Source of the DNA: an uncultured Nitrososphaerota archaeon
GTDB taxonomy: Archaea > Thermoproteota > Nitrososphaeria > Nitrososphaerales > Gagatemarchaeaceae
Direction: 5' to 3'
Length of the DNA stretch: 64,000 bases
Assembly (NCBI GenBank): GCA_963838925.1
Contig: CAWISW010000002.1
Span: 128,001-192,000 of the forward strand
Shown piece by piece: positions 1 to 47,603 of the stretch; the stretch's first letter is position 1, and every line of letters begins with the position of its first letter. Under the pieces are notes generated by a model. The model was given only the letters and a program-made list of their open reading frames with translations, was not told where the DNA came from and ran no database searches. Position numbers and translations under genes: made by a program.

Positions 1-351
1 CAGAAATATCTTAACTTCACGACTACCTCGGAGGTTCTGGCTTTTCAGCTTCAGCAGCTGCTCGCAAAGGTCGGAGTCGTGGCGACCCTCGAGAGGTCAG
101 AGCCGGAGAACAAGCTGCCATCCTATCATGTCGACGTATTCGGAAGATGGGCGATCAAGCTCGCAGCGATGTGGAAGATAGAGCTCGACTATCGCCCCAC
201 CAAACACGCAGACAAGTTCCACATCTCCGAGAACTACGTCTATCTTCCAATCAGGAAGATTGAGACGACTGAAGTGACAAACTACAGAGTGATGGACGTT
301 ACTGTCGATAATGACCACACATTCGCTCCTTTGGGGCTCGCGACCTCTAAC
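1..351 (+). mobile_element. Intein, C-terminal part with LAGLIDADG-type endonuclease remnant, in nuoI
   Basis: FTTTSEVLAFQLQQLLAKVGV resembles a DOD endonuclease block. VMDVTVDNDHTF resembles block F. The intein ends ATSN (349-351) and is followed by Cys+1 (352-354). Confidence 0.88.
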
Positions 352-528
352 TGCGTGGACGCCTGCCCCTTCGACGCCCTGTCGATGAGCAACGACTACG
401 AGCTCTCCGCCTACGACAAGGCCAGCCTGAAGTACACCCCTGACATGCTGATGCTTCCGCCGCCAGCCGAGCTCGGGACTGCCAAGGTCAAGTTCGACCC
501 GAAGAGGGGGACCGTGACCCATGGTTGA
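1..528 (+). CDS. nuoI: NADH-quinone oxidoreductase subunit I, 5'-truncated by the window edge and intein-containing
   Basis: Frame 1 is open from base 1. The C-extein CVDACPFDALSMSNDYEL matches the second 4Fe-4S motif of NuoI. The gene overlaps the nuoJ start. Confidence 0.88.
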   Translation, partial: QKYLNFTTTSEVLAFQLQQLLAKVGVVATLERSEPENKLPSYHVDVFGRWAIKLAAMWKIELDYRPTKHADKFHISENYVYLPIRKIETTEVTNYRVMDVTVDNDHTFAPLGLATSNCVDACPFDALSMSNDYELSAYDKASLKYTPDMLMLPPPAELGTAKVKFDPKRGTVTHG

Positions 529-1075
529 CGCGACGGACGCCGCGTTCATCGCCCTAACGGTAGTCACGCTCGGCGGAGCGATCATGGCCCTCGAGGCCAA
601 GGAGATAATCTATGGGGCTGTGGGCCTCGCGGGCAGCTTCTTCGGCGTCGCCTCGCTCTTCTTCCTCCTCGACTCCCCCTTTGTAGCGGTCTTCCAGATC
701 ACGGTCTACGTGGGGGCGGTCGCAGTCCTGGTCCTCTTCACGGTGATGCTCGTAAGGGAGGGGAGATGGTTCGGCGACTCCATGGGCCCTGCCGCGAGGG
801 TGGCCGCCGTGGTCACCGTCGCCGCCCTGGTGATCTCCCTCGTCTCCAGCTACATAGCCGCGGGCCTCTCGACTGCGAGCGAACAGCCGACCCCGCCCAG
901 CTTCGTGGGCATAGGGCAGCTCCTCACAGGGCAGTACGCCCCGGTCCTCGAGGTGCTCGCGCTCGTCCTGGCGGCCTCCGTCCTCGGTGCCCTCACGCTG
1001 GCCAAGGTCGAGCCTTCGGGCGAAGGCGGCTCGGTCACCAGGGCGCAGGGGCGCGACGAAGGGGAGAGGTCGTAG
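521..1075 (+). CDS. nuoJ: NADH-quinone oxidoreductase subunit J
   Basis: FQITVYVGAVAVLVLFTVML motif; hydrophobic; operon position. Confidence 0.93.
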   Translation: MVDATDAAFIALTVVTLGGAIMALEAKEIIYGAVGLAGSFFGVASLFFLLDSPFVAVFQITVYVGAVAVLVLFTVMLVREGRWFGDSMGPAARVAAVVTVAALVISLVSSYIAAGLSTASEQPTPPSFVGIGQLLTGQYAPVLEVLALVLAASVLGALTLAKVEPSGEGGSVTRAQGRDEGERS

Positions 1076-10031: not shown

Positions 10032-11087
10032 TCAGCCGTCGCTGCGCGAGCGAACGCTCGACCGTTGATGGCGTCCGAACATGCCTTCTACCCCCGTCAA
10101 GACCGCCATCACCCTGACTCCTCCGTGCATGTTCTCCTCAACCCTGGCACCCCAGACGATTCTGACGTCAGGTCTGAGGGTGCCCGTTATTTCGTCGCTC
10201 GCGGCCATGACCTCTTCGAGTGTAACGTCTCCTCCCCCCGTCACGTGCACCAAAACTCCGTAAGACTTTGAAACGTCTCGTAGGTCCAGGAGCCTGCCGT
10301 CTATTGCGTTCTTGGCTGCGTTCCCGACTCTCCTCTTGCCGGAGGATTCTCCCACGCCTATGGCAGCCAACCCCCTTCGCTCCGTTATCGCCTTTAGGTC
10401 AGCGTAGTCTATGTTGATGAGGGACGCCGTGGTTATGGTCTCGGTGATGCCCTTCACGAACTGACACACCAATTCGTTCGCTACCCCCAAACCCTGCTCG
10501 AGAGGTAGGTCACCTGCGACCTTTGAGAGTCTGGAGTTGTCAATCACGACCACCGTGTCGCAGTACTCTCGAAGCTTGTCGAGGCTCTTTCTGGCTTTCT
10601 TGTACCTGTACCTCTCGAAGGAGAAAGGAAGCGTGACGACCCCGATCTTTAGGATACCCTCTCCTGGGAGGGCCTTTGCGAGCACGTTTATCGCACCCGT
10701 ACCGGTCCCTCCCCCCAGACCCGCGCAAAGAAGGAGTATGCTCGACCCCGCAACGGCCTCTCTGAGCTCCTTAAGGCTCTCGTAGGCAGCCTTTTCACCG
10801 ATTTCGGGATGGCCGCCTGCGCCTTGACCATGAGTGATTTTCTCGCCGATGAGAATCCTAATGTCGGCCTTCGTCACGCTCAGGTGCACCGCGTCGGTGT
10901 TCGCGGCGATGAGCTTGCAGCCCTCGATTCCTTTCTCCTTCATCCAAGAAACAATGTTGCTTCCTGCTCCACCGATGCCTACGACGCAGACCCTGGGACG
11001 TGCTGCTGCCACAGCCCCTGCCAACCTGGCAGCCTCCGACAGATCCTGGGACGAAGAATCTCGCTCGATGGTATTCGTTGGCACCAA
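10032..11087 (-). CDS. ftsZ: Cell division GTPase FtsZ, archaeal FtsZ2-like
   Basis: VGIGGAGSN, ANTD, GAGG.PEIG, GLGGGTGTG, LPFSFE, T7 loop NIDYAD; start uncertain. Confidence 0.92.
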   Translation of the reverse strand: MVPTNTIERDSSSQDLSEAARLAGAVAAARPRVCVVGIGGAGSNIVSWMKEKGIEGCKLIAANTDAVHLSVTKADIRILIGEKITHGQGAGGHPEIGEKAAYESLKELREAVAGSSILLLCAGLGGGTGTGAINVLAKALPGEGILKIGVVTLPFSFERYRYKKARKSLDKLREYCDTVVVIDNSRLSKVAGDLPLEQGLGVANELVCQFVKGITETITTASLINIDYADLKAITERRGLAAIGVGESSGKRRVGNAAKNAIDGRLLDLRDVSKSYGVLVHVTGGGDVTLEEVMAASDEITGTLRPDVRIVWGARVEENMHGGVRVMAVLTGVEGMFGRHQRSSVRSRSDG

Positions 11088-12109: not shown

Positions 12110-13141
12110 TTAGGACCTCGTCGTGGTAGTCTTGTGAACCATCTCGACGATGCTCCGAAGGTTTTCTGGAGGTGTCTCCTTTAGGACACCGTGGCCAAGA
12201 CTGAAGATGTGCCCCGCCTTGCCTTCCGATTGTCGCAAAATCCTCCCGACCTCCCGCCGCATGGGTTCTCCTCCTGTCAACGCTACGGCCGGGTCGAGGT
12301 TCCCCTGAATGCCGGCGACGTTCCTTGACTTGGCCCAGGCGTCGCTCATCTCTATCCGCCAGTCGACGCTCAGGACGTCGGGACCGGTCTCAATGAACTT
12401 CTCGATGAGAGGTGCGGAGTTCGCGCAGAAATGTATCCGCGGAACCTTTCCGTCGAGTGACTGTAAAACCTCCTTTGTGTACTGGGAGACATACAACTCA
12501 TAGTCCGAGGGCGAGAGGCAGCCTACCCAGCTGTCGAAAAGCTGAATCGCATCGACCCCGTGTGAAATCTGTGATGAGAGGTATGTCTTCACCATCTTGG
12601 TGAGCACGCTCATCAGGCTGTGCCAGGTCTGAGGCTCGCCATACATCATTCTCTTTGTCCTCTCAAGGTCTCTGCTGGGCTGCCCCTCGATTATGTAACC
12701 CGCCAGAGTGAACGGCGCCCCAGAGAACCCAATCAGAGGAACCTGGTCGCCTAGCTTTTGGACGGTCGCGTCGATGCCGTCGAGAACATATCCGACGTCC
12801 TCATCTGGGTTGAGGTCCTTGAGCGAGTTGACTTCATCGGCAGTCCTGATTGGATTGGCCACAACGGGCCCAACGTTCTCTTCTATCTTGAAGCTGACCC
12901 CCATTCCTTCGAGAGGGAGCATGATGTCCGCGAAGACTATCCCCGCGTCCACGCCAAGCGCATTCACAGCGTCTACAACGGCCTGAGACGCCAGGGAAGG
13001 GTCCTTGGCCACTTCCAAGATTGACCTACCGCCCTTCAGTGCGCGGTAGCTTGGCAGGTACCTGCCCGCCTGCCTCATGAACCAGACGGGGGTGTGCGCC
13101 GGCTCCTTCCTGTTGCACGCGTCAATGAACGTCGAGTTCAT
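12110..13141 (-). CDS. hemE: Uroporphyrinogen decarboxylase
   Basis: PVWFMRQAGRYLP, FADIM, GAPFTLAGY, FSLGHG; ATG at 13141 overlaps the hemL stop. Confidence 0.95.
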   Translation of the reverse strand: MNSTFIDACNRKEPAHTPVWFMRQAGRYLPSYRALKGGRSILEVAKDPSLASQAVVDAVNALGVDAGIVFADIMLPLEGMGVSFKIEENVGPVVANPIRTADEVNSLKDLNPDEDVGYVLDGIDATVQKLGDQVPLIGFSGAPFTLAGYIIEGQPSRDLERTKRMMYGEPQTWHSLMSVLTKMVKTYLSSQISHGVDAIQLFDSWVGCLSPSDYELYVSQYTKEVLQSLDGKVPRIHFCANSAPLIEKFIETGPDVLSVDWRIEMSDAWAKSRNVAGIQGNLDPAVALTGGEPMRREVGRILRQSEGKAGHIFSLGHGVLKETPPENLRSIVEMVHKTTTTRS

Positions 13142-14463
13142 CGCATTGGTCTCCTTGCGGCGCACTCCGTGAATGCCCTCCTGCTCGCCTTGATGAATGC
13201 GTCGACGTCCGCAGGGGTGTGGGCGGTGGAAAGGAAGACGGTCTCGAATGCAGATGGAGGAAGATAGATTCCCGCTTCCAGCATTAGGCGATGGAATGTG
13301 GCGTAAAGACTCGTGTTCGAGCGCTTTGCCTCCTCGAAGTTCGTCACCTTCGTTTCGGAGAAAAAGACTCCCAGCATCGAGCCCCTCCTGTTCGTAGAGA
13401 TGGCGACACCCGCCCGGTTGGCTTCCTCTGTGAGTCCGCGCTCGAGCCGAGCCGAGGTCGCTTCCAGCCGGCCGTAGCTTCTGCCCTCCTCCATGATGGA
13501 GATGGTCGCAAGCCCGGCCGCTGTCGCCACCGGGTTCCCTGACAGCGTTCCGGCCTGATAGACCGGCCCCTCTGGCGCGACCAGCTGCATCATTTCGTCT
13601 GCCGCGCCATACGCTCCGACAGGGAATCCTCCTCCTATGACCTTCCCCAAGCAAGTGATGTCCGGTCTTACGTCGAGGAGGGCCTGCGCTCCTCCCAGAG
13701 AGAGTCTAAAGCCCGTAATCACCTCGTCGAAGATGAGCAGGGAGCCGTCGTCGGTGCAAAGCCGGCGGGCCGCCTCTAGGAAGCCGCTCTTCGGCGGGAC
13801 GACCCCCATGTTCCCCGCGACCGGCTCCAAGATGACGGCCGCGAATTCTCCTGGATGGTCGTCGAAGGCCGATTTTAGCGCGTCTGTGTCGTTGTAAGGG
13901 ATTGTGATCGTTTCGGCAGCTACGGCGGCGGGGACGCCGGCAGAGGAGGGAACATCGAGTGTCGCCAAGCCTGACCCGGCGTTGGTTAGGAACGGGTCGG
14001 AGTGCCCATGGTAGCATCCGTCGAACTTCAGCAGCATGTCACGCTTCGTGTACGCCCTCGCAAGCCTGAGTGCGGACATCGTCGCCTCGGTGCCTGAATT
14101 GACTAGCCTGACCTTCTCGACGCTCGGGACTGTTGCGCAGATTTTCTCTCCTAACCTCAACTCGTTTTCGGATGGCGCGCCGAAGCTAGTCCCCTTCCTG
14201 AGGGCCGCGGAGACGGCCCTCATGACCTTTGGGTGGGAGTGGCCTGCTATCAATGGCCCCCAAGAGCAGACATAGTCCGCGTAACTTCGGCCGTCGACGG
14301 ACCAGATACGGGACCCCTTTCCGCGCGCGATGAACACCGGGTTCCCTCCGACGGCGTTGAACGCGCGGACTGGGCTGTTCACTCCGCCCACCATGACCCT
14401 CTGAGCGCGTGCGAAAAGCGCCTCGGACCTCCTTCGCGCCTTCTCCGGAGCTTTCGTCCCCAT
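13138..14463 (-). CDS. hemL: Glutamate-1-semialdehyde 2,1-aminomutase
   Basis: GGVNSPVRAF, NSGTEAT, FDEVITGFR, LGKVIGGG, AGTLSGNP. Confidence 0.97.
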   Translation of the reverse strand: MGTKAPEKARRRSEALFARAQRVMVGGVNSPVRAFNAVGGNPVFIARGKGSRIWSVDGRSYADYVCSWGPLIAGHSHPKVMRAVSAALRKGTSFGAPSENELRLGEKICATVPSVEKVRLVNSGTEATMSALRLARAYTKRDMLLKFDGCYHGHSDPFLTNAGSGLATLDVPSSAGVPAAVAAETITIPYNDTDALKSAFDDHPGEFAAVILEPVAGNMGVVPPKSGFLEAARRLCTDDGSLLIFDEVITGFRLSLGGAQALLDVRPDITCLGKVIGGGFPVGAYGAADEMMQLVAPEGPVYQAGTLSGNPVATAAGLATISIMEEGRSYGRLEATSARLERGLTEEANRAGVAISTNRRGSMLGVFFSETKVTNFEEAKRSNTSLYATFHRLMLEAGIYLPPSAFETVFLSTAHTPADVDAFIKASRRAFTECAARRPMR

Positions 14464-35612: not shown

Positions 35613-37043
35613 CTATGATCTGAAGGCGAACGGGTTGACCGGGAAGTAGGCGAAGAAGAAGACTACAGCCGCGACCAACCAGAGCAGGATCAGCAGCCTC
35701 TCGGCCTTCACGCTTCCTCGCGCCAGGAACGTGACCGCCAGCGGGATCCCGAGCGCGAGACCCACGTCGGTGTTGATGAAGTAGAACGCGTACTCCACCC
35801 TGTCGCTGACCAAAGAGATGTAGTATAGGGGGAGATACGTCCCCGCGATGACGCACGCGACCAGCGCGTCGACCGCCTTCGCAGTTCTCCGCACGAGCCT
35901 CCACGCCACTATGGGAACCACCACCCAGATCGAGTACCAGACGACTAGGTTCCCGATCCCCTGCCAGTCTATCGGGTGAGTGATCTCGACCGTCGACGTG
36001 GGCGCACACGTCGACGAGGACACGCATGAGTTGGACGTCACCGTGACCGTCACTGTGCTGACATAGTAGGGTAGCGGGGCGACGTCCCAGGGCAAGATCC
36101 AGTCCCACGGGTAGCAGTTCCACTGGTTCGTGCTCCCGCAGCCCTTCAGCGATGTCTGGTAGGTGAAGTAGTATTCGAAGTTCTGGAGCGGGTTGGTCAC
36201 ACTACCCGACTCCGTCGTCGTGGTCGTCGTCGTCGTGAAGGTCTCGTTGATGAGCTGGTTCACGGTGACCGTAGGCTCGACGACGACCGTCGTCTTGGTG
36301 TACGGGTGGTACGCCGCGTCGTACCCCCAGAGGGGGAGCCCGACCACGAGCGAGACTATGATCGCGAATGCTAGGACCTTCTTCAGGCCGATGGGCGAGC
36401 CCGGCGTCCGCAGGCTCTTCGCGTTGGCCCAGAGGTGGTAGAGCACTAGGGCGAGCAGAAAGAACACTCCGCTCTCCTTGCTGAGCACGCACAGGCCGAA
36501 GGCCAGCGCAGAGAGGTAGTATCTCCTCTTGAAGTAAGCCAGGAACCCCGCGAGCGCGAAGAGGACCGGGGGCCCGTCAAGGAGGAGGAGGGACGTGTGT
36601 ATGAAGAAGAGGTTCTCGAACGCGAGCATCGAGGCGGCGAGGAGGGCGTTCTCCTTCGAGAAGAACTGCCTCGCGAGCTCGTACATCAGCCAGACCGAAA
36701 GGGTGCCGATCAGCGCGTAGAATATCCTCCATCCGAAGAAGTTGTCTCCGAACACCAGGATGCCAAGCGCGCCCCAGATCTTGCCGAAGAAGGGGTGCTC
36801 GAGGTTCGACGCGACCCCGTGGAGCAGGTCGAGCGACGCCTTGACGTAGTATGACTCGTCGAACACCTGGCCCGCTCCGTTGGACGTGTCAGAGGGGAAC
36901 GATAGCGCGAAGAGGTGCAGGGCGAAGATGACCAGGAGCAGGTGACCGATGTTGATGCCCCTCACCGCCTTCTGCAGGTAGTCGATGACCGACCCCTCTT
37001 CGCCGGCGGGCGCCACCTCGGTACTCTCGGCCAAGACGTCCAC
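35613..37043 (-). CDS. GT39/PMT-like glycosyltransferase
   Basis: VFDESYYV, NLEHPFFGK, FGWR, LSKESG, PWDW, GNLVVW. Confidence 0.85.
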   Translation of the reverse strand: MDVLAESTEVAPAGEEGSVIDYLQKAVRGINIGHLLLVIFALHLFALSFPSDTSNGAGQVFDESYYVKASLDLLHGVASNLEHPFFGKIWGALGILVFGDNFFGWRIFYALIGTLSVWLMYELARQFFSKENALLAASMLAFENLFFIHTSLLLLDGPPVLFALAGFLAYFKRRYYLSALAFGLCVLSKESGVFFLLALVLYHLWANAKSLRTPGSPIGLKKVLAFAIIVSLVVGLPLWGYDAAYHPYTKTTVVVEPTVTVNQLINETFTTTTTTTTESGSVTNPLQNFEYYFTYQTSLKGCGSTNQWNCYPWDWILPWDVAPLPYYVSTVTVTVTSNSCVSSSTCAPTSTVEITHPIDWQGIGNLVVWYSIWVVVPIVAWRLVRRTAKAVDALVACVIAGTYLPLYYISLVSDRVEYAFYFINTDVGLALGIPLAVTFLARGSVKAERLLILLWLVAAVVFFFAYFPVNPFAFRS

Positions 37044-38365: not shown

Positions 38366-38565
38366 CGGAATTACGCTACTTGTCTAGATTTCATGGCACC
38401 GTCGGTAATCTGCCCGGCGGACGATTTCCTAGCGCTGACCCAGCGATGAAGCTATTTCGCTCAACTCACGGAGCAGAATCCGGCGCGAAACACGGGCCCA
38501 TGCGGGAAAAAATCGAGCATTACTTCTTAACGCTTAAATCGAGTGACCGAGTTGGTGTATCAAGT

Positions 38566-39564
38566 TTGAGAAGATCTCTCTCTTTTGCGTCAGTTTTGGC
38601 TTTGCTCGCGGTCATCACGGTTTCGGGGGCGAATTTGGCCCATGCCCAGCCTCAGAATGCCTGGACAGCAAACGGATGGGTCTCCTCTGGAACCATCCAG
38701 GACCTGACGGGCAACTCGAACCTAGCAACGAACTCTCCGCTCATCGCAGGGCACTCTTACAACATGACGCTGCAGATCAACGTCCCCAACACTTCGACGA
38801 GCACCCCGCAGTTCCAAGTGAGCCTCAACACGAGGTTCGGAGCGGCCACAGGGCAGTCTGTGTATTGGGTCGTCCACAACCCAACTTACCCGGGCTATAA
38901 TCGCACGGGATTCACTGGCGGAAGCAAGACTGTGAGCTTCAACTACGTGCAGGGGACTGTCAGGGTCTCGGCTTACTTCCAGATCCCGGTGAACTTCACC
39001 ATTCCGATCGCGAAGTACTCCACTCCCTCGGGCAACGGCACGCTGACGCTGCACCTTCCGCAGGACAACGTGATATTCGTCTCCGTCGTTCCAGTCGGAT
39101 CGACCAGCGCTGGCTCGTTCTTGGCCTCCGTACAGGACCAGACCATCCAGACGTACGCGAACAACTACAACCAGACTTCCAGCTACGTCCCCGCGGGGAA
39201 GATCCCTTCAGCCTACTCGTCTTTGGTCAGCTCGATCATCAATGAGGCGCAAGCCCTCAACAACCTAGGTCTGCCAGACCAGGGCACAGCGCTGCTCAAC
39301 GACCTCGCTCCCTCGGCCTTCCCGGTTCCTCCAAACGGCTCCCTCACGACCTACGCCTTGGTGGGATTGGCAGGCGCGGTGGTCGTCGTCGTCCTACTGG
39401 CCGTCCTAATGCTGCGCAGCAGAGGAAAGAGCGGCTACTCGGTCGGGATAATCAACGACGTCCAGAAGGACCTCGCTGTCCTTGAGGTAACGGCGGCGAA
39501 GTACGACAAGGCGATGGCCGACAAGCTAAAGTCTCTCAGAGACAAGTTGAGCGAGTCAAGTTGA
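38566..39564 (+). CDS. Cell-surface protein: signal peptide, beta-rich ectodomain, C-terminal TM and cytoplasmic helix
   Basis: MRRSLSFASVLALLAVITVSGANLAHA signal; several N-x-S/T sequons; TM ALVGLAGAVVVVVLLAVLML. Confidence 0.8.
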   Translation: MRRSLSFASVLALLAVITVSGANLAHAQPQNAWTANGWVSSGTIQDLTGNSNLATNSPLIAGHSYNMTLQINVPNTSTSTPQFQVSLNTRFGAATGQSVYWVVHNPTYPGYNRTGFTGGSKTVSFNYVQGTVRVSAYFQIPVNFTIPIAKYSTPSGNGTLTLHLPQDNVIFVSVVPVGSTSAGSFLASVQDQTIQTYANNYNQTSSYVPAGKIPSAYSSLVSSIINEAQALNNLGLPDQGTALLNDLAPSAFPVPPNGSLTTYALVGLAGAVVVVVLLAVLMLRSRGKSGYSVGIINDVQKDLAVLEVTAAKYDKAMADKLKSLRDKLSESS

Positions 39565-39594
39565 GCGAGTCAAGTTGAGCGAGTCAAGTTGAGC
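39543..39594 (+). repeat. 14-bp tandem repeat (CAAGTTGAGCGAGT x3.7)
   Basis: Three perfect units plus 10 bp, spanning a stop codon and a start codon. Confidence 0.95.
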
Positions 39595-42267
39595 AAATCC
39601 AACTCCGGCAAGATGTCGTCGTTCGCGAGCATCCACCTGGTGGGGCTGGGCGGCACCGGGACTAACGTGATCCAAGCACTCATCGAGAGCGACCGGTTCT
39701 TCAAGCTGCTTACGGCGGAGGACTTCAACATCGCGTGCCTCTCTATAGACGTTGCAGACGCCGACATCTCCAACCTCGTGAGCTCCTACAAGGCGACCCA
39801 GGCGAAGCTCGAGGCCGCGGGAGTCTCCGTCGACCGCCTGTGGGTCAGGGGCCTCAACATGAAGTTCAACACCCCCGAGTCTCTCTTCGAGTTCATGGGG
39901 AAGTACAACACATATCTCATGAAGGAGGGGATAGTCGCCACCAACTACAAGCCCTGGGTGCAGTCCTCGATGACCATCCCGCCTCTCGCGGGAGGCGTCG
40001 GGAGGATGAGGGCCCTGAGCAAGGCGGTCTATGCCCTGAACTACTACCACTACAGCGAGCTCAACAGCGCCATCTCGGTCTTCAAAGACCGGGTCCTCAC
40101 CTCAAAGTTCCAGCCGATAGTCGTCCTAGTCTTCGGGCTGGGCGGGGGCACAGGCAGCGGGATGGTCTTCGACTTTGCGAGGCACCTCCGCGCCAAGCTG
40201 GGGTCCTCGGTCCCGATAATGGGCCTCGCTATCCTTCCCAGCGCCGCCGACGACCTCTTGGCGAGAGGTCCTGCGCCCTACAACGCGCTGATGGAGGCAG
40301 AGCTCCTCTTCAACAGAAAGCTCAACGAGCAGGTCGCGAAGAAGTACGGGGCGGCATACACCAACCCCTTCAACTCCTTGTTCTTCGTCCCCCTCGACCC
40401 GGTGTACAACAACAGGAACAACCTGGTCACCGCGAAGAAGGAGCTCGACGAGTCTATCATAGACATCCTGAGCATGTTCATGCGTTTCGACCTCGCAGAC
40501 CTCCTCAGCAGGGTCGGGACCAACAACGACTTCGGTGCCAACTGGGCTCACACCCTCGCCTACCTGCGGATCCGGTACCCCGTCCAGGACTACATCGACT
40601 ACATGCACGAGTACCTCAAGCTGCTCGAGACCCTCGGCTCCTTCATGGACTCCAAGAAGGAAGCCCTCGTGACGATCAACGACGCGATGAAGAACAGGTT
40701 CGCCGCGCTCAAGAACCTCTACCGCAAGAACCTCATCCAGACGAACAACTACCGACCCGACTCCTTCGACTCCGAGGTCGAGGAGGTCATCAGGAGGGCG
40801 GGGAAGTTCGAGGCCGAGTTCAAGAAGCAGGTCAGGGGTCTCGAGGACTTCGCTCTGAACTACAACCAGCGGTGGAGCAAGGTGCTCCAGGCGATGGCCT
40901 TCGGGCCGGAGACCGTCGAGTACAGCGTCATCCAGGGTCTGACGCACTGGCACCAACAGATCTCCAACCTCGGAGCGAACTACGAGCAGTTCCTCAAGGA
41001 CATACCGCTCTACACCTCTGAGCTCGAGAACAGCATCACCGCTAGCAAGTTCCTCACGTCTAGCCAGATACGGCAGATCAGGAGCTACGTCAGCTTCGTC
41101 AACCTGGTCGCGGTGTCCCTCGATACGCTCAACCTCTACATCAGGGCGAAGGGCCTGGCCGACGAAGTGGCGGTACTCTACGCGAAGGACGAGAGCAAGG
41201 AGGGCAGGATGGCGGCGGCGAAGGGAGAGACGGACCTGCTGCCCCTGTACAAGGCCGCTGGGTACATCCTCAACCGCCCCGAGACCGAGATAAAGGTCTC
41301 CGACCAGTACATCCCCGGCATCAGGGTCGTCAAGAAGGGCCTGGACGACTCCTACAGGGAGGCCAGCGCCAGCCTGGAGTCGACGGAGAGGCTACTCGCG
41401 CAGAAGGAGCAGGACGTCGCGAGGCTGAGCAAGGAGATCGACAAGATCAAGCTCGACGTCAGCGGGAAGAAGAAGCTGATCAAGCGCACGCTCGACTCGC
41501 TGCAGAACGAGGTGGAGGCGGTGCGCGTCCAGATAGAGGGACAGAGGCAGGACCGCGACAAGCTGAGGGCGGACCTCGACAAGCTCACCGAGCTGGAGAA
41601 GGCCTTGGAGATCACATCGCCGTACAGGAAGATCCTCGCGAACGTCGTGAACAAGACCACGGAGCTCAACACGCTGATGAGCGGGATAACGAACACCGGC
41701 AGCTACTACGAGAGGGTCGTCGAGCTCAGCGAGGTGGAGCAGGTAAAGATAATGGAGAAGATCCTCCGCGAGGACGAGGAGAGCCTGAAGGGCGACTCCA
41801 TCCTGAAGGAGATAGTCGACAGGGAGAGGTTCCGGAGCATAGTCAAGAGCTACATCCGCATATTCAGCGTCCCCAACTACCCGGGGCTCTCAGACACCTA
41901 CCGGTCGGACCTGATATGGGCGACCGTCGGCATCCCGCCCGGCCTGTGGGACCAGGAGCTGCAAGGCGCGCTCTCGAGCACCCTCAACGTGTATTCGAGC
42001 GTCGAGGCCAGCAAGAGCATCTCCCTGCGGCAGATCCCCCAGATGGACCCCTGGACGATCACCTTCCTCGTAATCATGGCCAAGGCGAGGATCGACCAGA
42101 TAGAGAAGTTCCCGTCGATGAAGAACGACATGGAGGGGGTGCAAAAGTCTGAGAGGCTCCTCTTCAGGAGCTTCCTACTCGAGCAGGGACTGGCGAGCCT
42201 CGACGAGCTAATCGCCAAGTTCGAAGAGAGAAGGGCGGCACAGAACACCAAAGAAAGGGAGGTCTGA
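39589..42267 (+). CDS. Large tubulin/FtsZ-superfamily GTPase with coiled-coil insertion
   Basis: LVGLGGTGTN, SIDV, GGVGRMR, GLGGGTGSG (GGGTGSG at 40141), AILP, YNAL, T7-like FDLAD; heptad region at about 41340-41610. Confidence 0.88.
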   Translation: MSKSNSGKMSSFASIHLVGLGGTGTNVIQALIESDRFFKLLTAEDFNIACLSIDVADADISNLVSSYKATQAKLEAAGVSVDRLWVRGLNMKFNTPESLFEFMGKYNTYLMKEGIVATNYKPWVQSSMTIPPLAGGVGRMRALSKAVYALNYYHYSELNSAISVFKDRVLTSKFQPIVVLVFGLGGGTGSGMVFDFARHLRAKLGSSVPIMGLAILPSAADDLLARGPAPYNALMEAELLFNRKLNEQVAKKYGAAYTNPFNSLFFVPLDPVYNNRNNLVTAKKELDESIIDILSMFMRFDLADLLSRVGTNNDFGANWAHTLAYLRIRYPVQDYIDYMHEYLKLLETLGSFMDSKKEALVTINDAMKNRFAALKNLYRKNLIQTNNYRPDSFDSEVEEVIRRAGKFEAEFKKQVRGLEDFALNYNQRWSKVLQAMAFGPETVEYSVIQGLTHWHQQISNLGANYEQFLKDIPLYTSELENSITASKFLTSSQIRQIRSYVSFVNLVAVSLDTLNLYIRAKGLADEVAVLYAKDESKEGRMAAAKGETDLLPLYKAAGYILNRPETEIKVSDQYIPGIRVVKKGLDDSYREASASLESTERLLAQKEQDVARLSKEIDKIKLDVSGKKKLIKRTLDSLQNEVEAVRVQIEGQRQDRDKLRADLDKLTELEKALEITSPYRKILANVVNKTTELNTLMSGITNTGSYYERVVELSEVEQVKIMEKILREDEESLKGDSILKEIVDRERFRSIVKSYIRIFSVPNYPGLSDTYRSDLIWATVGIPPGLWDQELQGALSSTLNVYSSVEASKSISLRQIPQMDPWTITFLVIMAKARIDQIEKFPSMKNDMEGVQKSERLLFRSFLLEQGLASLDELIAKFEERRAAQNTKEREV

Positions 42268-44528
42268 TGGCCCAGGTTGAGAGCAGGTCAAGGGCAAGGG
42301 TCATTGCCTACACCTCCGCACTAATAATCGCAATCGCCTCGTCGGTCTACCTCGCGGTCGTCCCATTCCTGCCCGCGTCTCCCATCGTCCCGCTCCTGGT
42401 GGGCGTGGCGCTCGGCGGCCTCTCGCTGAGGAACAGAGGGATCTCCATCGCCACCCTCTACCTTCTCGTCTACTTCTCAGTCCTCTGGCAGATGATCGGC
42501 TTCGGGTTCTTCCAGCTCCTCTCAGCGGGCGTCGGCGTCTCAGTCCTGCTCGCCATGGCGGTCCCGCTCCTCCCGTTCATGACGAAGAGGGTCGAGCTGA
42601 GCTCCATGGCGCTCGCGGTCCTGGCCGTCGCGCTCATGCTGACCCCCGCGTACTTCGTCTCCATACCGCTCATCGCCGCGGCGGCTCTGACGTTCGGCGG
42701 CCTGGCGAGCCTCGAGGCCCTCGCCACGACCTTCCTCTTCTTCCTCACCCCCTTCATGCTGCTCGAGAACGCCCTCTACTTCACGACGACGAGCGGCGCG
42801 ACCGCACCCATAATCTTCGGGCAGTTCTCCCTCCTCTCTCAGAACATGAGGCCGCCCCTCCCTGGCCTCAACGTGCTTCTCACCGGCCTTCCCGCTAACT
42901 ACCTGTCCCACTACGCCCTGCCCGTCTCGGGCTGGCTCTCGGAGAGCTCGGGCGTCCTGCTCATACCTCTGTTGATCCTCGGGGTGATCCTCGTCGCCTC
43001 CTCTTCCATGGGGGGTCTCACGCGAACCCTGGTCGAAAGGCTCGAGCGGTCGAGGGAGATGACCGGAAGGGTGAGGCTCGTACTGGCGCCCCTCGTGGTG
43101 GCCGTTGTGACCCCCACCGTCTTCATCGTGCTCCTTACCCTGCTGTCTCGCCCCGAGGCGGGCGGCTTCCAGACCTCGCTCACCGACGACCCGTCGCACC
43201 TTCAGGCGTTCTACATGCTCGGCTCCTCCTTCCTGCTGACCACGTCGTTCATCGGGAGGGAGTCCCTGATACTGAGGCTGGAGAGCGTCCAGGTCGGCAC
43301 CGAGGGGCTCGAGGAGCTGATCGGGAGGTGCCTCGGGAAGATGAAGGAGGTCCAGGAGCTGCTAGACCTGGTCTCGCGCCGGGTCCCGTCGATGAGCCTG
43401 AGCGGGGAGAGGCAGTCGCTCTCAGAGTATGCAACTTACATCGCCGACGTCCGAAGGCAGCTCAAGGGGGCGAGCGGCGCCCTGATAGGGCAGTTCCAGA
43501 CCCAGTTGCAGGCGACCGTCCTCCAGCCCCTGACGCAGCTGCCAGACATCGTCAGGCACAGGGTGGCGAACGAGATCAGAGGGCTCATCTCGGCGACCGC
43601 AACCGCCAACAACCACCTCAAGGAGGCCAACGTCCCCCTCGAGTATCCTGACATCCCTGCCCCGGAAGACGGGGCGAGGCTCGACGACCTGATCGGCGCC
43701 TACGAGGCTGCAGCGTCCGCCGTGAAGGAGGTCACGCTGGAGCTCTCAGACGAGTACGGCCGGGAGTCGACCGCCCTCGACGTGCTCATGGGACAGGAGG
43801 AGGTGAGCCCGCCGGTCAGCGCAGCAGTGCTGATGGAGTCGAACGAGCTCGTCGGCGCAATGAGGCTGGTTGCCGAGGAGTACTGGCTCAACTTCCACCT
43901 CCGATGGGCGGAGCAGGTCGACCAGAAGAAAGCCGCCCTCCTGGCTAGGATGAAGGACCTCGAGGACGCCGTGAGCGAGACGGAGCGGCCCCGCATCGAA
44001 GAGATAGAGAAGACCGTGGAGGCCGCGGAGCCCGCGAGGTCTGTCGCGACTCTCAAGGGCCTCTCGCAACTGCGGACAATGCTTGAGGTCATCGTCTCCC
44101 GCACGTCCTCGGGAGCTGACAGGGTCGGTGCGATGCTCGAGTCGCTAGACCTCAAGTCCGTGAGGACGCTCAGGTTCGAGACCGTGAACCGCCTCACCGA
44201 GGTGGTCGAGCTCAAGAAGAGGCTCGATAACGTAGTGGCAAGCTTCGACAGCCTGACAAAGTTCCTCGACAACGCGACTGGCGTCCTCAAGAGCCAGTCC
44301 GCAGCATGGAAGAGCGACCGCGAGAACCTCGTGGCCCTCGCGCAGTACCCGCTCGCCAAGAAGATAATCCGGTCGATGCTGGAGAACCAGACGACGCTCC
44401 CGTTGGCAAAACTGCCTTACCAGAAGAGGGCTGCGGGCCTCTACGCGCAGCTCTACGCGACCGGGAACCCAGGAGTGGAGTACGACGAGGGCGGGGAGAG
44501 CTTGGTGGTGAAGGAAGAGCATGGCTAG
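42267..44528 (+). CDS. Polytopic membrane protein with a long helical/coiled-coil C-terminal domain
   Basis: About 9-10 TM segments in the first ~330 aa, charged helical remainder; TGATG coupling. Confidence 0.8.
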   Translation: MAQVESRSRARVIAYTSALIIAIASSVYLAVVPFLPASPIVPLLVGVALGGLSLRNRGISIATLYLLVYFSVLWQMIGFGFFQLLSAGVGVSVLLAMAVPLLPFMTKRVELSSMALAVLAVALMLTPAYFVSIPLIAAAALTFGGLASLEALATTFLFFLTPFMLLENALYFTTTSGATAPIIFGQFSLLSQNMRPPLPGLNVLLTGLPANYLSHYALPVSGWLSESSGVLLIPLLILGVILVASSSMGGLTRTLVERLERSREMTGRVRLVLAPLVVAVVTPTVFIVLLTLLSRPEAGGFQTSLTDDPSHLQAFYMLGSSFLLTTSFIGRESLILRLESVQVGTEGLEELIGRCLGKMKEVQELLDLVSRRVPSMSLSGERQSLSEYATYIADVRRQLKGASGALIGQFQTQLQATVLQPLTQLPDIVRHRVANEIRGLISATATANNHLKEANVPLEYPDIPAPEDGARLDDLIGAYEAAASAVKEVTLELSDEYGRESTALDVLMGQEEVSPPVSAAVLMESNELVGAMRLVAEEYWLNFHLRWAEQVDQKKAALLARMKDLEDAVSETERPRIEEIEKTVEAAEPARSVATLKGLSQLRTMLEVIVSRTSSGADRVGAMLESLDLKSVRTLRFETVNRLTEVVELKKRLDNVVASFDSLTKFLDNATGVLKSQSAAWKSDRENLVALAQYPLAKKIIRSMLENQTTLPLAKLPYQKRAAGLYAQLYATGNPGVEYDEGGESLVVKEEHG

Positions 44529-45564
44529 GTGCCCCAACGGCCACGAGCAGCGCCTAGGGCTAAAGTGCGCGATGTGCGGAGCGGAGCTCTCATACAGGGA
44601 GTCCGTCACCGAACTTCGGAACCTGCCAAGGGTCGAGCCGGACTACGGCAAGGTCTCGATACTCACAGTAGGGTACCCGAGGCTCTCCCCCTCGGCCTAC
44701 TACGTCGGCGAGGTCTCCACAGGGCCGACTGACGTCAAGACGGCGACGACCTTCCAGGTGGCCAGCATACGGGGCGGCAGCTGGCGCGACCTCCAGAAGA
44801 AGTACCAGGAGGACCTTCGCAGGTGGATGAAGCTCGTAGGCGTCGACAAGTCCACCGACAGGATAGTGGTCGTGGACACGACGAACCCGCTCTCGGTCCT
44901 CGCCGTCTCAGCCCTCCCGAAGCTCGAGCACACCGCGGTGATCGCGGTCGTGGCCGACCGCGACTCGACCCCGCTCGAGCAGAACACGAGCTACGTCGCC
45001 CTCTCGCTCGCCCTCAACAGCGGCCTTCCGGTCATCGTCCTCTCCGAGACGTTCGAAAGAGAGATGCTCTACTTCACCGAAGACAGGGGGTTCGCGACGC
45101 GCGCCGAGGCCATGTCGAGGCTACTGAGTCCCATGCTCGAAGCGGCAGACGATCTCATGGACCTCCTCGAGAGAGACCTGAAGCTGGGCGTGAGGCTTCA
45201 CTGCCTTTCTGCGATAGTGGCGGGCTCAAAGTCCGTGTACGGGATCGCAACCAACGCGTTCATGGCGCAGAGCTACAACCTCTCAGTAGGGTCCATGCCC
45301 GACGATTGTCAGACCGTCCACTCCCTCGTCTTCTCTGGTGAGGAGACGGAAGGCGAGTTCGAGAAGAGCTTCGGCGTCTTCCGCAACAGGAAGTTCAAGG
45401 GAGCGCTCAGCGCCGAGTTCCGCTTCCACGAGTCCAGGTCGGCGCTGTACGACATGGTGACGCTATACGGGATGGGAGCAGACGCATTCCTCCAGGGCCT
45501 TGCGGACGGCTATCAGGCGATTGCGAAGAGCATGCCCGAGCTCAAAGCGGAAGGGGTGTCCTGA
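44521..45564 (+). CDS. Zn-ribbon plus degenerate tubulin-like domain protein
   Basis: CPNGH..CAMCG; AVIAVVAD..PLEQNTSYVAL..VIVLS resembles the tubulin S5-H5-S6 segment; no GGGTG motif. Confidence 0.65.
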   Translation: MARCPNGHEQRLGLKCAMCGAELSYRESVTELRNLPRVEPDYGKVSILTVGYPRLSPSAYYVGEVSTGPTDVKTATTFQVASIRGGSWRDLQKKYQEDLRRWMKLVGVDKSTDRIVVVDTTNPLSVLAVSALPKLEHTAVIAVVADRDSTPLEQNTSYVALSLALNSGLPVIVLSETFEREMLYFTEDRGFATRAEAMSRLLSPMLEAADDLMDLLERDLKLGVRLHCLSAIVAGSKSVYGIATNAFMAQSYNLSVGSMPDDCQTVHSLVFSGEETEGEFEKSFGVFRNRKFKGALSAEFRFHESRSALYDMVTLYGMGADAFLQGLADGYQAIAKSMPELKAEGVS

Positions 45565-45569
45565 AGCCC

Positions 45570-46346
45570 ATGGCCGAACCGCCTCAAGCCGGGACCCCGC
45601 GAGCCTACAAGCTCGTCTCGGCGACATACCGGGACAAGGCCTATCCTGACGGCATCTTCCTCGTGGACGAGAAGCGTGGCGAGATCGAGCTCAGGCAGTG
45701 GGTGGGCAGGCGGAAGAAGGAACAGGCCCCGGTGGCCAGGTTCCGCTTCGAGCCCACCACGGAGGTGCGGGTGGACGGCCCACTTCTCAAGGTCTCTGAC
45801 CTCGCGATAACCCTCGAATCTCCCGAAGAGGCGGCAGAAGTGGCCGGGCTGCTCCGGAGGCCCGCCCGTGAGCGCGAGGCCTCGAGCGTCCTCTCGGACT
45901 CGGAGTCGGCTGTGAGGAGCTTCCTGGAGTCCAGGGGCGAGGCCATGGCCTTCCTCGCCAAGCTGAAGGCGGAGCCGAGGGAAGCGCTCTTGAGCGCAGA
46001 GTCGTCGTGGCCAGCCGATTACTCGGGTGAGCCGATAGACGCCGTGTACTCTACCTATTCCTCGAGCCTCGCCGTGTCGCTTGAGAAGATGACCTCCTCG
46101 CTTGCGGACGCCGAGAAGAGCCTTGGCCCCGGGGTCACCGGGAGGCTCTACGCGGTCGCTTACACCATCGGGGCCGTGCAGAACTCGCTCTTCGAGGGCG
46201 ACTCCGATCTTGCGCAGGAGCTCGCCGCCCTACAGGAGCTCGGCATCTCTTCCACCGCCCAAGAGTTGCGAGCGGAAGACCCCACGGAGAAGCTGCTTCA
46301 GCGCGCCCACGGATCGCTATCGATCCTCGCCAACGCTCCCGCCTGA
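45570..46346 (+). CDS. Hypothetical protein with a PH-like N-domain and helical C-domain
   Basis: Beta-strand run ending in LESPEEAAEVAGLLR helix; last gene of the operon. Confidence 0.65.
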   Translation: MAEPPQAGTPRAYKLVSATYRDKAYPDGIFLVDEKRGEIELRQWVGRRKKEQAPVARFRFEPTTEVRVDGPLLKVSDLAITLESPEEAAEVAGLLRRPAREREASSVLSDSESAVRSFLESRGEAMAFLAKLKAEPREALLSAESSWPADYSGEPIDAVYSTYSSSLAVSLEKMTSSLADAEKSLGPGVTGRLYAVAYTIGAVQNSLFEGDSDLAQELAALQELGISSTAQELRAEDPTEKLLQRAHGSLSILANAPA

Positions 46347-46388: not shown

Positions 46389-47603
46389 CTACAGGGCCGG
46401 CCTTGCGCCCACCGTGACGAGGACTGTCTTCAACGTCGTGCCCCTCATTATGCCGACGCTGAGGGAGTGCCCGGGAACCGCATACTCCTCGAGGTATGAC
46501 GCCAAGGCGTCGTGGTTCTCGATCCTCGTCCCGTTTATCGAGACGATGACGTCCCCGCCAGTGATGTACGTGTTCCCCTCGACGCTCGCCTGCTTGGTCC
46601 CTGCCTGGATGCCCGCGCTGGCTGCCGGACCTCCCGCCACGACGTTCTCGATCAGGACGCCGTAGGTCACGTTGTTGCCGTTGGCCTGGGCCAGCTGGTA
46701 GAACATGTCCGCCGTGCCTATCCCTAGGTACGGGTGCATGCTGAATGTCCCGGTCGTGATCAAGGAGGAGAGCTCCCTTGAAACCGCGTCCGAGGGAATG
46801 GCGAACCCGACCCCCTGGGAGCCGTTGACGGTGGCCGTGGTGAGCCCTATCACTTGCCCGTTCACGTTGAAGAGGGGGCCCCCGGAGTTCCCCGGGTTGA
46901 TGGGCGCGCTGAACTGGATGACGTCAGCAATCGAGTAGTTCCCAGACGTGGTCTCGCTGATGGTCCTCCCCAGCTGGCTGACCACTCCGACCGTGAGCGA
47001 GCCGGAGAGGCCGAAGGGGTTCCCTATCGCCGCGACGGGGTCCCCCACGTGGACCGCAGAGGACGAGGAGAGGGTGAGGGGGTGAAACTCGGACGCGGGT
47101 GCGTTGGGGACCTTGACGACCGCGAGGTCGCTGTAGGGGTCGGTCCCTACCACCGACGCCGGATACGCGTTCCCGTCCCAGAAGATGACCGTCATGTTGG
47201 TCGCGCCATCGACCACGTGGAAGTTGGTCACTACGTAGTCCGCGCCGTTGTAGGTCATGACGAACCCCGACCCGAGGACCTCCTCGGTGACCGGGACGCT
47301 GTAGAACCCGTTGCTCACTGTCGTGGAGACGAACCCGTCCACGGTGACGACGCTCCCGTTCGAGTCCTTGTAGATCTGGACCGCGTCTATCGAGGCAGCG
47401 GTCGACCCGGTGACGGCCGCGCCGCCTCCTGTGACGGTGGTGGTGGAGACAGACGTGGACGTAACCGTGTTGGTGGCCGCGGAGGCCGCGTGTCCTCCCA
47501 CGACGTAGTACGACGCCCCAGCGCCCAGCCCGGCTGCCAGAATCAACAGGATCGCGATTGCGGCGATCCTCTTAGCCCCAAGACCTTGAGAAGGATAATC
47601 CAT
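46389..47603 (-). CDS. HtrA/DegP family serine protease with PDZ domain
   Basis: GSGF, TNFHVV, SDLAV, INPGNSGGPL; N-terminal TM. Confidence 0.94.
   Translation of the reverse strand: MDYPSQGLGAKRIAAIAILLILAAGLGAGASYYVVGGHAASAATNTVTSTSVSTTTVTGGGAAVTGSTAASIDAVQIYKDSNGSVVTVDGFVSTTVSNGFYSVPVTEEVLGSGFVMTYNGADYVVTNFHVVDGATNMTVIFWDGNAYPASVVGTDPYSDLAVVKVPNAPASEFHPLTLSSSSAVHVGDPVAAIGNPFGLSGSLTVGVVSQLGRTISETTSGNYSIADVIQFSAPINPGNSGGPLFNVNGQVIGLTTATVNGSQGVGFAIPSDAVSRELSSLITTGTFSMHPYLGIGTADMFYQLAQANGNNVTYGVLIENVVAGGPAASAGIQAGTKQASVEGNTYITGGDVIVSINGTRIENHDALASYLEEYAVPGHSLSVGIMRGTTLKTVLVTVGARPAL

Follow-up and report, generated by a model that had tools for sequence, protein, structure and literature searches.

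A candidate tubulin-fold GTPase split by a helical arm, and its membrane-protein cassette, in a Nitrososphaerota archaeon

The stretch of DNA analysed here, referred to as the window, comprises 64,000 nucleotides from an uncultured Nitrososphaerota archaeon of the family Gagatemarchaeaceae (assembly GCA_963838925.1, contig CAWISW010000002.1, positions 128,001 to 192,000 of the forward strand). It harbours a tightly packed cassette of co-oriented genes, centred on a gene for a protein of 892 residues (39589..42267, + strand) that is assigned to the FtsZl1/Tubulin_2 family and is termed the stalked tubulin below. This gene is preceded by up1, which encodes a single-pass membrane protein (38380..39564, +), and is followed by dn1, specifying a polytopic membrane protein (42267..44528, +), by dn2, whose product of 347 residues is predicted to combine a Zn-ribbon with a complete tubulin/CetZ fold (44521..45564, +), and by dn3, encoding a soluble protein of 258 residues with no recognised fold (45570..46346, +). 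The best overall explanation of these features, to which we give a probability of about 60%, is that the stalked tubulin is a tubulin-fold GTPase split by a helical arm and encoded in a membrane-tethered cassette.

The stalked tubulin gene and its family

The assignment of the stalked tubulin is based on Pfam matches, on an AlphaFold2 (AF2) model and on structural alignment with VIA. An earlier note on this DNA, made from the letters alone, had described the GTPase motifs as intact, a description borne out by motif positions and by conservation across 39 homologues of 32–92% identity. The motifs are GLGGTGTN at residues 19–26, GGVG at 135–138 within PPLAGGVGRMR, GGGTGSG at 185–191 and FDLAD at 300–304. 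G136, G138, F300, D301 and D304 are invariant in the homologues, and G19–G22, G24, N26, G135, G185–G187, G189 and G191 are conserved in at least 90% of them. FtsZ paralogues of the host genome display the same motif order (GLGGAGSN, GGGTGTG, NIDYAD; a usable open reading frame, ORF, was available at three of the four paralogue loci), the distance from T4 to T7 being 100 residues in these proteins versus 115 in the stalked tubulin. The protein possesses both the T1 loop and the GGGTG[ST]G T4 loop of the superfamily GTPase domain, together with a core helix H7 (279–297) leading into the acidic T7 loop FDLAD, whose catalytic role is predicted. The TTG start codon of the gene aligns with ATG in two of five close relatives.

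The Pfam model of FtsZl1/Tubulin_2, PF13809, matches residues 17–221 with 58.9 bits, the cut-off being 27 (expectation value, E, 6.8e-16), and in the nearest Atlas clusters PF13809 is found in 85–100% of members. Recognition by other models is faint: Pfam Tubulin aligns solely with the T4 region (residues 177–222; 27.4 bits, under the cut-off of 33), the NCBIfam scan gave no score near any cut-off (ftsZ, 17.2 bits versus 295.2), and within the PDB, sequence searches reached CetZ1 in its T4 region alone (E 0.048 by phmmer, 8e-04 by profile). Besides CetZ1, the family profile matched one coiled-coil protein among the PDB sequences. The FtsZl1 family corresponds to Pfam Tubulin_2 and was described as an FtsZ-like domain at the N-terminus joined to an extended coiled coil and a C-terminal domain (Makarova & Koonin 2010, PMC2875224), a layout that recurs in the stalked tubulin. 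These sequence matches place the gene in a known family that lacks experimental characterisation: a search of open-access PMC and bioRxiv found no experimental study of any FtsZl1/Tubulin_2 member.

A word-indexed search in which 8000 candidates were scored returned 173 proteins at E <= 0.001. Among the matches listed, full-length relatives measure 857–909 residues and range from 92% down to 33% identity; named carriers belong to Nitrososphaerales, Bathyarchaeia and Dehalococcoidia and include Sulfolobus tengchongensis (43% identity), a cultured organism. A profile search of 1.84 billion cluster representatives yielded 265 matches at E <= 0.001, 120 at 1e-10 and 51 at 1e-30, with about 14 full-length clusters of 858–916 residues. 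The stalked-tubulin family is small.

The predicted fold and the helical arm

The AF2 model of the stalked tubulin, computed from an alignment of 39 sequences, has a mean predicted local distance difference test score (pLDDT) of 86.4 and a predicted template modelling score (pTM) of 0.76; mean pLDDT is at least 87 in the 10-residue blocks spanning S7 and residues 771–840. The GTPase domain through strand S7 (residues 12–331; 39622..40581, +) was delimited from DSSP assignments on the model, invariant residues and the FtsZ motif order. It is modelled as seven strands with helices (13–268), a long helix (279–297), FDLAD, a helix (302–309) and a strand (320–329), and accommodates T1 at 19–26, a T3-like loop at 131–141, T4 at 185–191, the core helix at 279–297, a T7-like loop at 300–304 and S7 at 320–329. 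The chain leaves the tubulin fold directly after S7. Residues 332–760 are then almost unbroken helices, in keeping with the ~440 helical residues that the earlier note had placed after HTLAYLRIRYP (321–331). The C-terminal block (residues 745–875; 41821..42213, +), defined by VIA ranges, invariant residues and short homologues, starts with a helix (745–760) and proceeds through a strand (776–781), a helix (789–802) and two further strands (811–816 and 823–833), followed by helices at 841–849, 853–859 and 871–891. W777, P783, W787, I811 and W822 in this block are invariant in the 39 homologues. A four-stranded activation domain after H8 is accordingly present in the model, formed by strands 320–329, 776–781, 811–816 and 823–833; the last three agree with LIWATVG, ISLRQI and TITFLVIMAKA, which had been read from the sequence as the remaining strands.

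Foldseek ranks CetZ2, CetZ1, FtsZ and TubZ at the top for this model (E 4e-06 to 1e-04). VIA aligns it with CetZ (3zid_A) at Z 26.3 and a root-mean-square deviation (rmsd) of 3.4, with 319 of 360 residues aligned over model positions 12..855. The 15 rows for FtsZ chains give Z 21.3–22.1 (rmsd 3.4–3.7; 281–292 of 295–315 residues aligned; model ~12..833), and tubulins give Z 21.3–22.0 (rmsd 3.3–3.6; 341–355 of 405–433; model 12..875). The aligned ranges stop at 833 for FtsZ, at 853–855 for CetZ, TubZ and PhuZ, and at 874–879 for tubulins. When the model was included in an all-against-all VIA run of 48,161 representative chains, 16 whole-fold tubulin-family representatives led with Z 17.1–25.1, and the best non-tubulin family reached Z 12.6. 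The C-terminal strands are predicted to complete the activation domain because a single strand after H8 precedes the arm, because FtsZ chains are aligned almost in their entirety and because the aligned range ends at the last strand. The earlier note had allowed that the C-terminal segment might prove to be an unrelated fold, or that the N-terminal 330 residues might already form a complete tubulin; the coverage of nearly whole FtsZ chains by model positions ~12..833 and the lone strand (320–329) after H8 speak otherwise. Its proposal that the stalk is inserted in the fold, not appended to it, is supported by the AF2 model, the VIA alignments and short homologues. The whole tubulin fold is thus very probably present in this protein, split by a helical arm of ~410 residues.

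Insertion can also be traced without the model. Short natural homologues of 450–590 residues match the family profile, in a domain-level search, at ~8–290 and ~750–870. The two blocks, ~470–490 positions apart in the family profile, are separated in these proteins by 108 residues (P0148, C-terminal block E 2e-11), 93 residues (P0149, 1.8e-14), 94 residues (P0162, 5e-06) and 55 residues (P0151, 1.6e-04). A profile built from residues 745–875 and these four proteins, hereafter the C-block profile, matched eight further proteins outside its build set (E 7.6e-15, 3e-12, 8e-10, 8.6e-10, 4.4e-09, 1.6e-06, 1.8e-05 and 0.008), the best value for reversed control sequences being 0.024. As relatives with both halves adjacent exist, the arm represents an insertion of ~385–415 residues. 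Mean identity to the window protein follows a pattern that agrees with this view, high in the core and low in the arm: 0.64 in the GTPase domain, 0.65 from H7 to S7, 0.43 in 332–560, 0.42 in 561–700, 0.64 in 701–775, 0.67 in 776–833 and 0.41 in the tail. Conservation of the arm lies below that of the core up to residue 700 and equals it in 701–744. The arm-less Tubulin_2-like group of 450–590 residues consists of P0148, P0149, P0151, P0153, P0155, P0162, P0168, P0173, P0187, P0195 and P0215, several of which are characterized by His- and Asp-rich termini.

The arm itself (residues 332–744; 40582..41820, +) is helical throughout in the model and missing from the short homologues. At its end, a wide VIA search delineated an antiparallel coiled-coil hairpin (562–702; 41272..41694, +) made of two long helices, 564–619 and 627–672, residues 332–560 forming further helices. 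The closest match of the hairpin is IpaB (Z 12.6, rmsd 1.7, 106 residues aligned, model 571..677); SMC, Rad50, JetABC, prefoldin, the dynein stalk and PspA/Vipp1 follow at Z 10.3–11.7. Since every one of these matches falls below the bar of ~13 applied to helical folds, they are taken to reflect shape and not kinship. An SMC-related NCBIfam match (17.6 bits versus a cut-off of 300) concerns the coiled coil alone. The strong heptad run reported in the earlier note at 41340–41610 (residues ~585–675) does coincide with the two long helices of the hairpin, but its strength was confirmed only in part: a crude heptad score peaks at 0.70–0.77 over residues 601–660, slightly higher than shuffled sequences on average but within their range (mean 0.59, standard deviation 0.07, maximum 0.78). 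In tubulin, the loop between S7 and H9 is the M-loop, which mediates lateral contacts between protofilaments. The exit site of the arm presumably corresponds to the M-loop position, on the side of the protofilament, and if so the arms would stick out from the side of a polymer; the earlier note had likened such a projecting rod to dynamin or SMC.

The cassette and a putative pseudo-tubulin

Gene neighbourhoods were surveyed in 80 loci from named genomes of Nitrososphaeria, Bathyarchaeia, other Thermoproteota, Dehalococcoidia and other Chloroflexota, scaffolds of 1.77 Mb and 0.76 Mb included. Iterative profile searches over 2509 ORFs of at least 80 residues located up1 in 76 loci, dn1 in 74, dn2 in 71, dn3 in 14 and up2 in 4 (57, 20, 16, 10 and 4, respectively, by single-sequence tblastn); these counts are lower bounds, as contig ends cut several loci. 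In these 76, up1 immediately precedes the tubulin gene. The commonest order, up1-TUB-dn1-dn2, occurs in 25 loci; 22 loci, mostly labelled Bathyarchaeia, show up1-TUB-dn2-dn1 with dn2 on the opposite strand, and 10 have up1-TUB-dn1-dn2-dn3. Cassette genes mostly overlap or abut, and the architecture is retained in 10 distant loci inspected by eye. The cassette is conserved across Nitrososphaeria, Bathyarchaeia and Chloroflexota, and its occurrence on large bacterial scaffolds points to possible transfer between archaea and Chloroflexota. In Dehalococcoidia-type loci a gene of ~320–350 codons, designated X, is situated between dn1 and dn2; X is present in 38 of the 80 loci, and profile searches detected no relation of it to dn3 (0 of 15) or to dn2. 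The combination of cassette and X is found in L021–L046, loci labelled Chloroflexota and in some cases Nitrososphaeria, among them the 1.77 Mb Dehalococcoidia and 0.76 Mb Chloroflexia scaffolds.

The up1 protein, recognised by iterative profile, tblastn and transmembrane (TM)-like segments, has a hydrophobic N-terminal segment, a beta-rich outer domain, a TM anchor at ~327–345 and a cytoplasmic tail (346–394) in which block 361–380 is the most conserved part of the whole protein. Of 73 homologues, at least 79% have gaps opposite its residues 1–60 (window 38380–38560, TTG start). Judging from this alignment, translation probably begins downstream of the first ~60 codons of the called ORF, just before the hydrophobic segment at ~66–84. 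The start of dn1 overlaps the stop codon of the tubulin gene by one base. Identified from its ORF, its TM-like segments and its family, dn1 shows seven TM-like segments within residues 17–289 in a crude hydropathy scan, and then a cytoplasmic helical part of ~420 residues. Searches of Pfam, NCBIfam and PADLOC gave no family match for up1, dn1 or dn3. When the whole stalked tubulin was put through complex prediction together with the up1 tail (343–394), the tool returned 'no answer' (score 0.00, mark 0.32), which speaks neither for nor against a contact.

The dn2 protein was analysed by AF2 modelling, wide VIA search, Foldseek and a family profile. It opens with a C-x3-H ... C-x2-C ribbon (C4, H8, C16, C19), and its model reaches a pLDDT of 91.2 and a pTM of 0.86. 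The best wide VIA alignment is with CetZ (Z 22.8, rmsd 3.2; 280 residues over model positions 42..339). Sixteen tubulin-family representatives covering the whole fold reach Z >= 16.6, compared with 8.1 for the best of any other fold. Foldseek places gamma-tubulin first (E 1.2e-11), with CetZ2 practically tied (1.9e-11). By itself the window dn2 has no family match in Pfam or NCBIfam, and its T4 loop (GGGTGSG) is deleted in the alignment. Its family is more readily recognised: GGGTG[SGA]G is retained in 11 of 74 other family ORFs, Pfam Tubulin recognises 15 of 34 aligned members (best E 6e-11) and Tubulin_2 three, and the family profile finds 133 distinct tubulin-superfamily sequences in the PDB (CetZ2, 1.8e-07). 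Members from Chloroflexota carry FIGIG(T/D)(T/Q)G after the ribbon. No conserved acidic residue of T7 type was seen across the family alignment. According to its model, dn2 is a complete tubulin fold without the T4 loop, that is, a predicted GTPase-dead pseudo-tubulin.

In two loci the dn2 and dn3 profiles match one and the same ORF (L008, 441 residues, 6723–8048; L010, 519 residues). This apparent fusion hints that dn2 and dn3 work together. L010 contains two cassettes, with a second, inverted dn1-dn2-dn3 upstream of the cassette; these features of L010 lie at 1–2150 and 12888–14447. In L048–L080, mostly labelled Bathyarchaeia, at least 22 loci have a gene of the dn2 family on the opposite strand, placed between dn1 and the tubulin gene; its products are often longer (370–658 residues), a lysine/glutamate-rich N-terminal extension replacing the Zn-ribbon.

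Possible function, precedents and distribution

Because the GTP loops and the acidic T7 pair (D301 and D304) are invariant, the stalked tubulin most likely binds GTP and would hydrolyse it on head-to-tail stacking of subunits, in the manner of FtsZ and tubulin. In both of those proteins the acidic T7 pair acts across the head-to-tail interface. A possible role, proposed tentatively, is that the cassette constitutes a membrane-tethered, GTP-dependent system of accessory filaments by which the membrane or envelope is shaped or remodelled. In such a system the stalked tubulin would polymerise with its arms projecting laterally; the arm and the partners up1 and dn1 would connect the polymer to the membrane, and the GTPase-dead dn2 could serve as a cap, a nucleator or a heterodimer partner.

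Several points weigh against the picture of a split tubulin GTPase in a membrane-tethered cassette. The fold is a prediction, and its T3-like loop (131–150) has a pLDDT below 50. VIA reports only the first and last aligned residues, the contacts of 320–329 with 776–833 being deduced from these, and the M-loop position of the arm was deduced from the order of secondary-structure elements and not from a residue-level alignment. Pfam searches of the C-terminal 193 residues at E up to 10 retrieved neither FtsZ_C nor Tubulin_C; scans of this region and of the arm alone gave only sub-threshold coiled-coil families and VMAP-M9 (E 0.029). In hhalign, the C-terminal block pairs with the contiguous tubulin-fold family A2 in a plausible register of strands, but at a non-significant E of 0.13. 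Classical FtsZl1 proteins of ~1100 residues meet the C-block profile at E 0.04–1.3, against 0.024 for the reversed control; their best match is near the C-terminus in five of five, though no better than that control. The alignment behind the dn2 model contains clearly tubulin-like members, a possible source of bias in its fold. Finally, GTP binding, hydrolysis, polymerisation, membrane binding and contacts between cassette proteins are inferred only.

A different use of the same parts would be a nucleotide-gated dimer or small oligomer akin to SMC/Rad50 or dynamin, in which GTP-dependent engagement of heads moves arms that act on a membrane partner. In SMC/Rad50 and the dynamin family, too, the chain exits an NTP-binding head, runs out along a long antiparallel helical arm and comes back to complete the head, and hairpin 562–702 superposes on those of SMC, Rad50, JetABC and the dynein stalk (Z 10.4–11.6), although these matches lie under the helical-fold bar and speak for shape only. 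Unlike the ABC ATPase or P-loop GTPase heads of those proteins, the head of the stalked tubulin is, on the model, a tubulin fold of which just the second domain is interrupted; the resemblance is best regarded as analogy, not kinship. An arm on the lateral-contact side of the fold may hinder bundling, a GTPase-dead partner of tubulin fold would fit a defined heterodimer, and in its treatment of FtsZl1 the 2010 paper allowed a non-filamentous protein as the less likely case (PMC2875224), the filament-forming ability having been left open there since no C-terminal tubulin domain was recognisable. The invariant T7-like acidic pair favours stacking, though it is compatible with a dimer as well. 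We consider the dimer unlikely.

Distinctly unlikely, and more elaborate than the accessory filament system, would be a membrane-spanning machine of two tubulins that passes GTP-driven polymer dynamics to the envelope. The stalked tubulin would polymerise on the inner face of the membrane, dn2 would cap or nucleate like gamma-tubulin or pair as in the alpha/beta dimer, and the arm, as an M-loop enlarged about twenty-fold, would couple subunits to the multi-TM partner. The conserved up1 tail would link the polymer to a domain outside the cell, and the arm-less relatives would represent the ancestral contiguous form of the lineage. As in alpha/beta- and gamma-tubulin, two tubulin-fold paralogues are encoded together here, one of them apparently unable to hydrolyse; unlike those tubulins, dn2 lacks the whole T4 loop and carries a Zn-ribbon, and pairing of the two proteins is hypothetical.

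The source genome (1.84 Mb, 87% complete) holds four PF00091 genes of 355–371 codons besides the stalked tubulin. Of 201 genomes sampled from the class, 5 carry a homologue of the stalked tubulin at E <= 1e-20; these represent 4 of 58 genera, and none is among the 114 genomes of the largest family. In the only further genome sampled from the family of the source genome, which is 100% complete, no homologue was found at this threshold. Given the sporadic distribution and the four FtsZ-family genes, an accessory function is likelier than a role in division, and a division protein is unlikely. An accessory role distinct from cell division was likewise argued for FtsZl1 in 2010, with a prediction of membrane remodelling from adjoining genes for membrane proteins (PMC2875224). 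One of the homologues in the class (G077:C117:1538-4093) contains a single in-frame TGA and may represent a disrupted gene or an error in sequencing.

The distribution in 5 of 201 genomes, the occurrence of cassettes in archaea and Chloroflexota, including the 1.77-Mb Dehalococcoidia scaffold, and the pair of cassettes in L010 would also suit a biological-conflict (anti-virus) system with the tubulin-like NTPase as sensor or switch, as would the faint C-terminal VMAP-M9 match to a vWA-MoxR-associated region (15 bits versus 27). Such a role is very unlikely, however: PADLOC gave no meaningful match in the five cassette proteins (AbiEi, E 0.0049, was the sole match, with no stretch passing), Pfam and NCBIfam scans returned no effector domain such as a nuclease, a protease or a pore-forming toxin, and no integrase or mobile-element gene was found among the 16 window ORFs scanned. 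The weakest alternative, an appended arm followed by an unrelated, mostly helical C-terminal domain as FtsZl1 was described in 2010, is highly improbable and largely refuted: the description of FtsZl1 in that paper identified neither T6-H7 nor any likeness in the C-terminal domain (PMC2875224) and the C-terminal block has no significant sequence match to tubulin C-domains, but VIA alignments cross the arm over nearly whole FtsZ and CetZ chains, one strand only follows H8 in the N-terminal 330 residues, both blocks adjoin in short homologues, and longer relatives align to 4b45 at start and ends in a Borg preprint (10.1101/2024.11.05.622173).

The split tubulin fold is, then, precedented, by one passing remark on longer relatives: the preprint notes that proteins of ~1057 residues align to CetZ (4b45) only at their start and ends and that a Halorientalis protein looks alike (10.1101/2024.11.05.622173). 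These Borg and haloarchaeal proteins would share the split topology. The remark fills one paragraph on longer proteins, in which neither an insertion site nor short forms, a cassette or an analysis of partners is given. In the sections of Santana-Molina et al. 2023 (PMC9871819) that concern them, Tubulin_2 proteins serve only as an outgroup. A mapped insertion site, arm-less relatives, the distinct cassette and the accompanying pseudo-tubulin were found in no paper in open-access PMC and bioRxiv.

The stalked tubulin resembles FtsZl1 in its Pfam match above the curated cut-off and in its membrane-protein neighbours. It differs in that its subfamily measures 860–920 residues as opposed to ~1050–1150, classical proteins matching the N-domain of its profile only; in that the cassette encodes a second predicted tubulin-fold protein; and in that T6-H7 and the C-domain can both be placed in the model. 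Most FtsZl1 operons were reported in 2010 to include a vWA protein, a divergent P-loop GTPase, an OmpA-like protein or kinases (PMC2875224). None of these families was detected in the five cassette partners or the 11 other window ORFs scanned, and the window cassette differs from those operons for this reason. The archaeal families A1–A2 of the 2010 paper may overlap with up1 or dn1. CetZ (3zid, 4b45, 4b46) is the best structural match of both the stalked tubulin (Z 24.7–26.3) and dn2 (Z 22.4–22.8), and the likeness extends to the helix after the last strand. CetZ, however, is contiguous (~330–390 residues) and recognisable as FtsZ/CetZ in sequence, whereas the 892-residue stalked tubulin carries an insert of ~410 residues and shows marginal sequence likeness.

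Few branches of the tubulin superfamily are as divergent as FtsZl1/Tubulin_2. A predicted full fold with its arm entry site, the existence of arm-less natural relatives and a predicted dead partner make polymerisation, decoration of one face by the arm and the role of dn2 testable. The locus would add an example, from TACK archaea and Chloroflexota, of an active tubulin paralogue paired with an inactive one, and bears on the origin of heterodimeric tubulin.

An ordinary FtsZ/tubulin gene, one of the four in the genome, lies ~29 kb upstream in the window, at ~10515–10991 on the - strand (PF00091 E 1.8e-41, open frame of 358 residues). Where the up1 stop meets the tubulin start, Tandem Repeats Finder reports a 14-bp tandem repeat (39539..39594; unit GAGTCAAGTTGAGC; period 14, 4.0 copies, 97% matches). 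All five of five close relatives lack 28 bases of the repeat, and in them the up1 stop and tubulin start overlap as TTGA or ATGA; in the window both ORFs are intact and the overlap is gone. The repeat may have arisen by genuine slippage or in the assembly. The cassette is flanked by genes for a PMT_2-type glycosyltransferase with a poly-threonine run (35613–37043, -) and for an HtrA-like protease with a PDZ domain (46389–47603, -), each of which stands beside the cassette in four closely related loci out of the 80.

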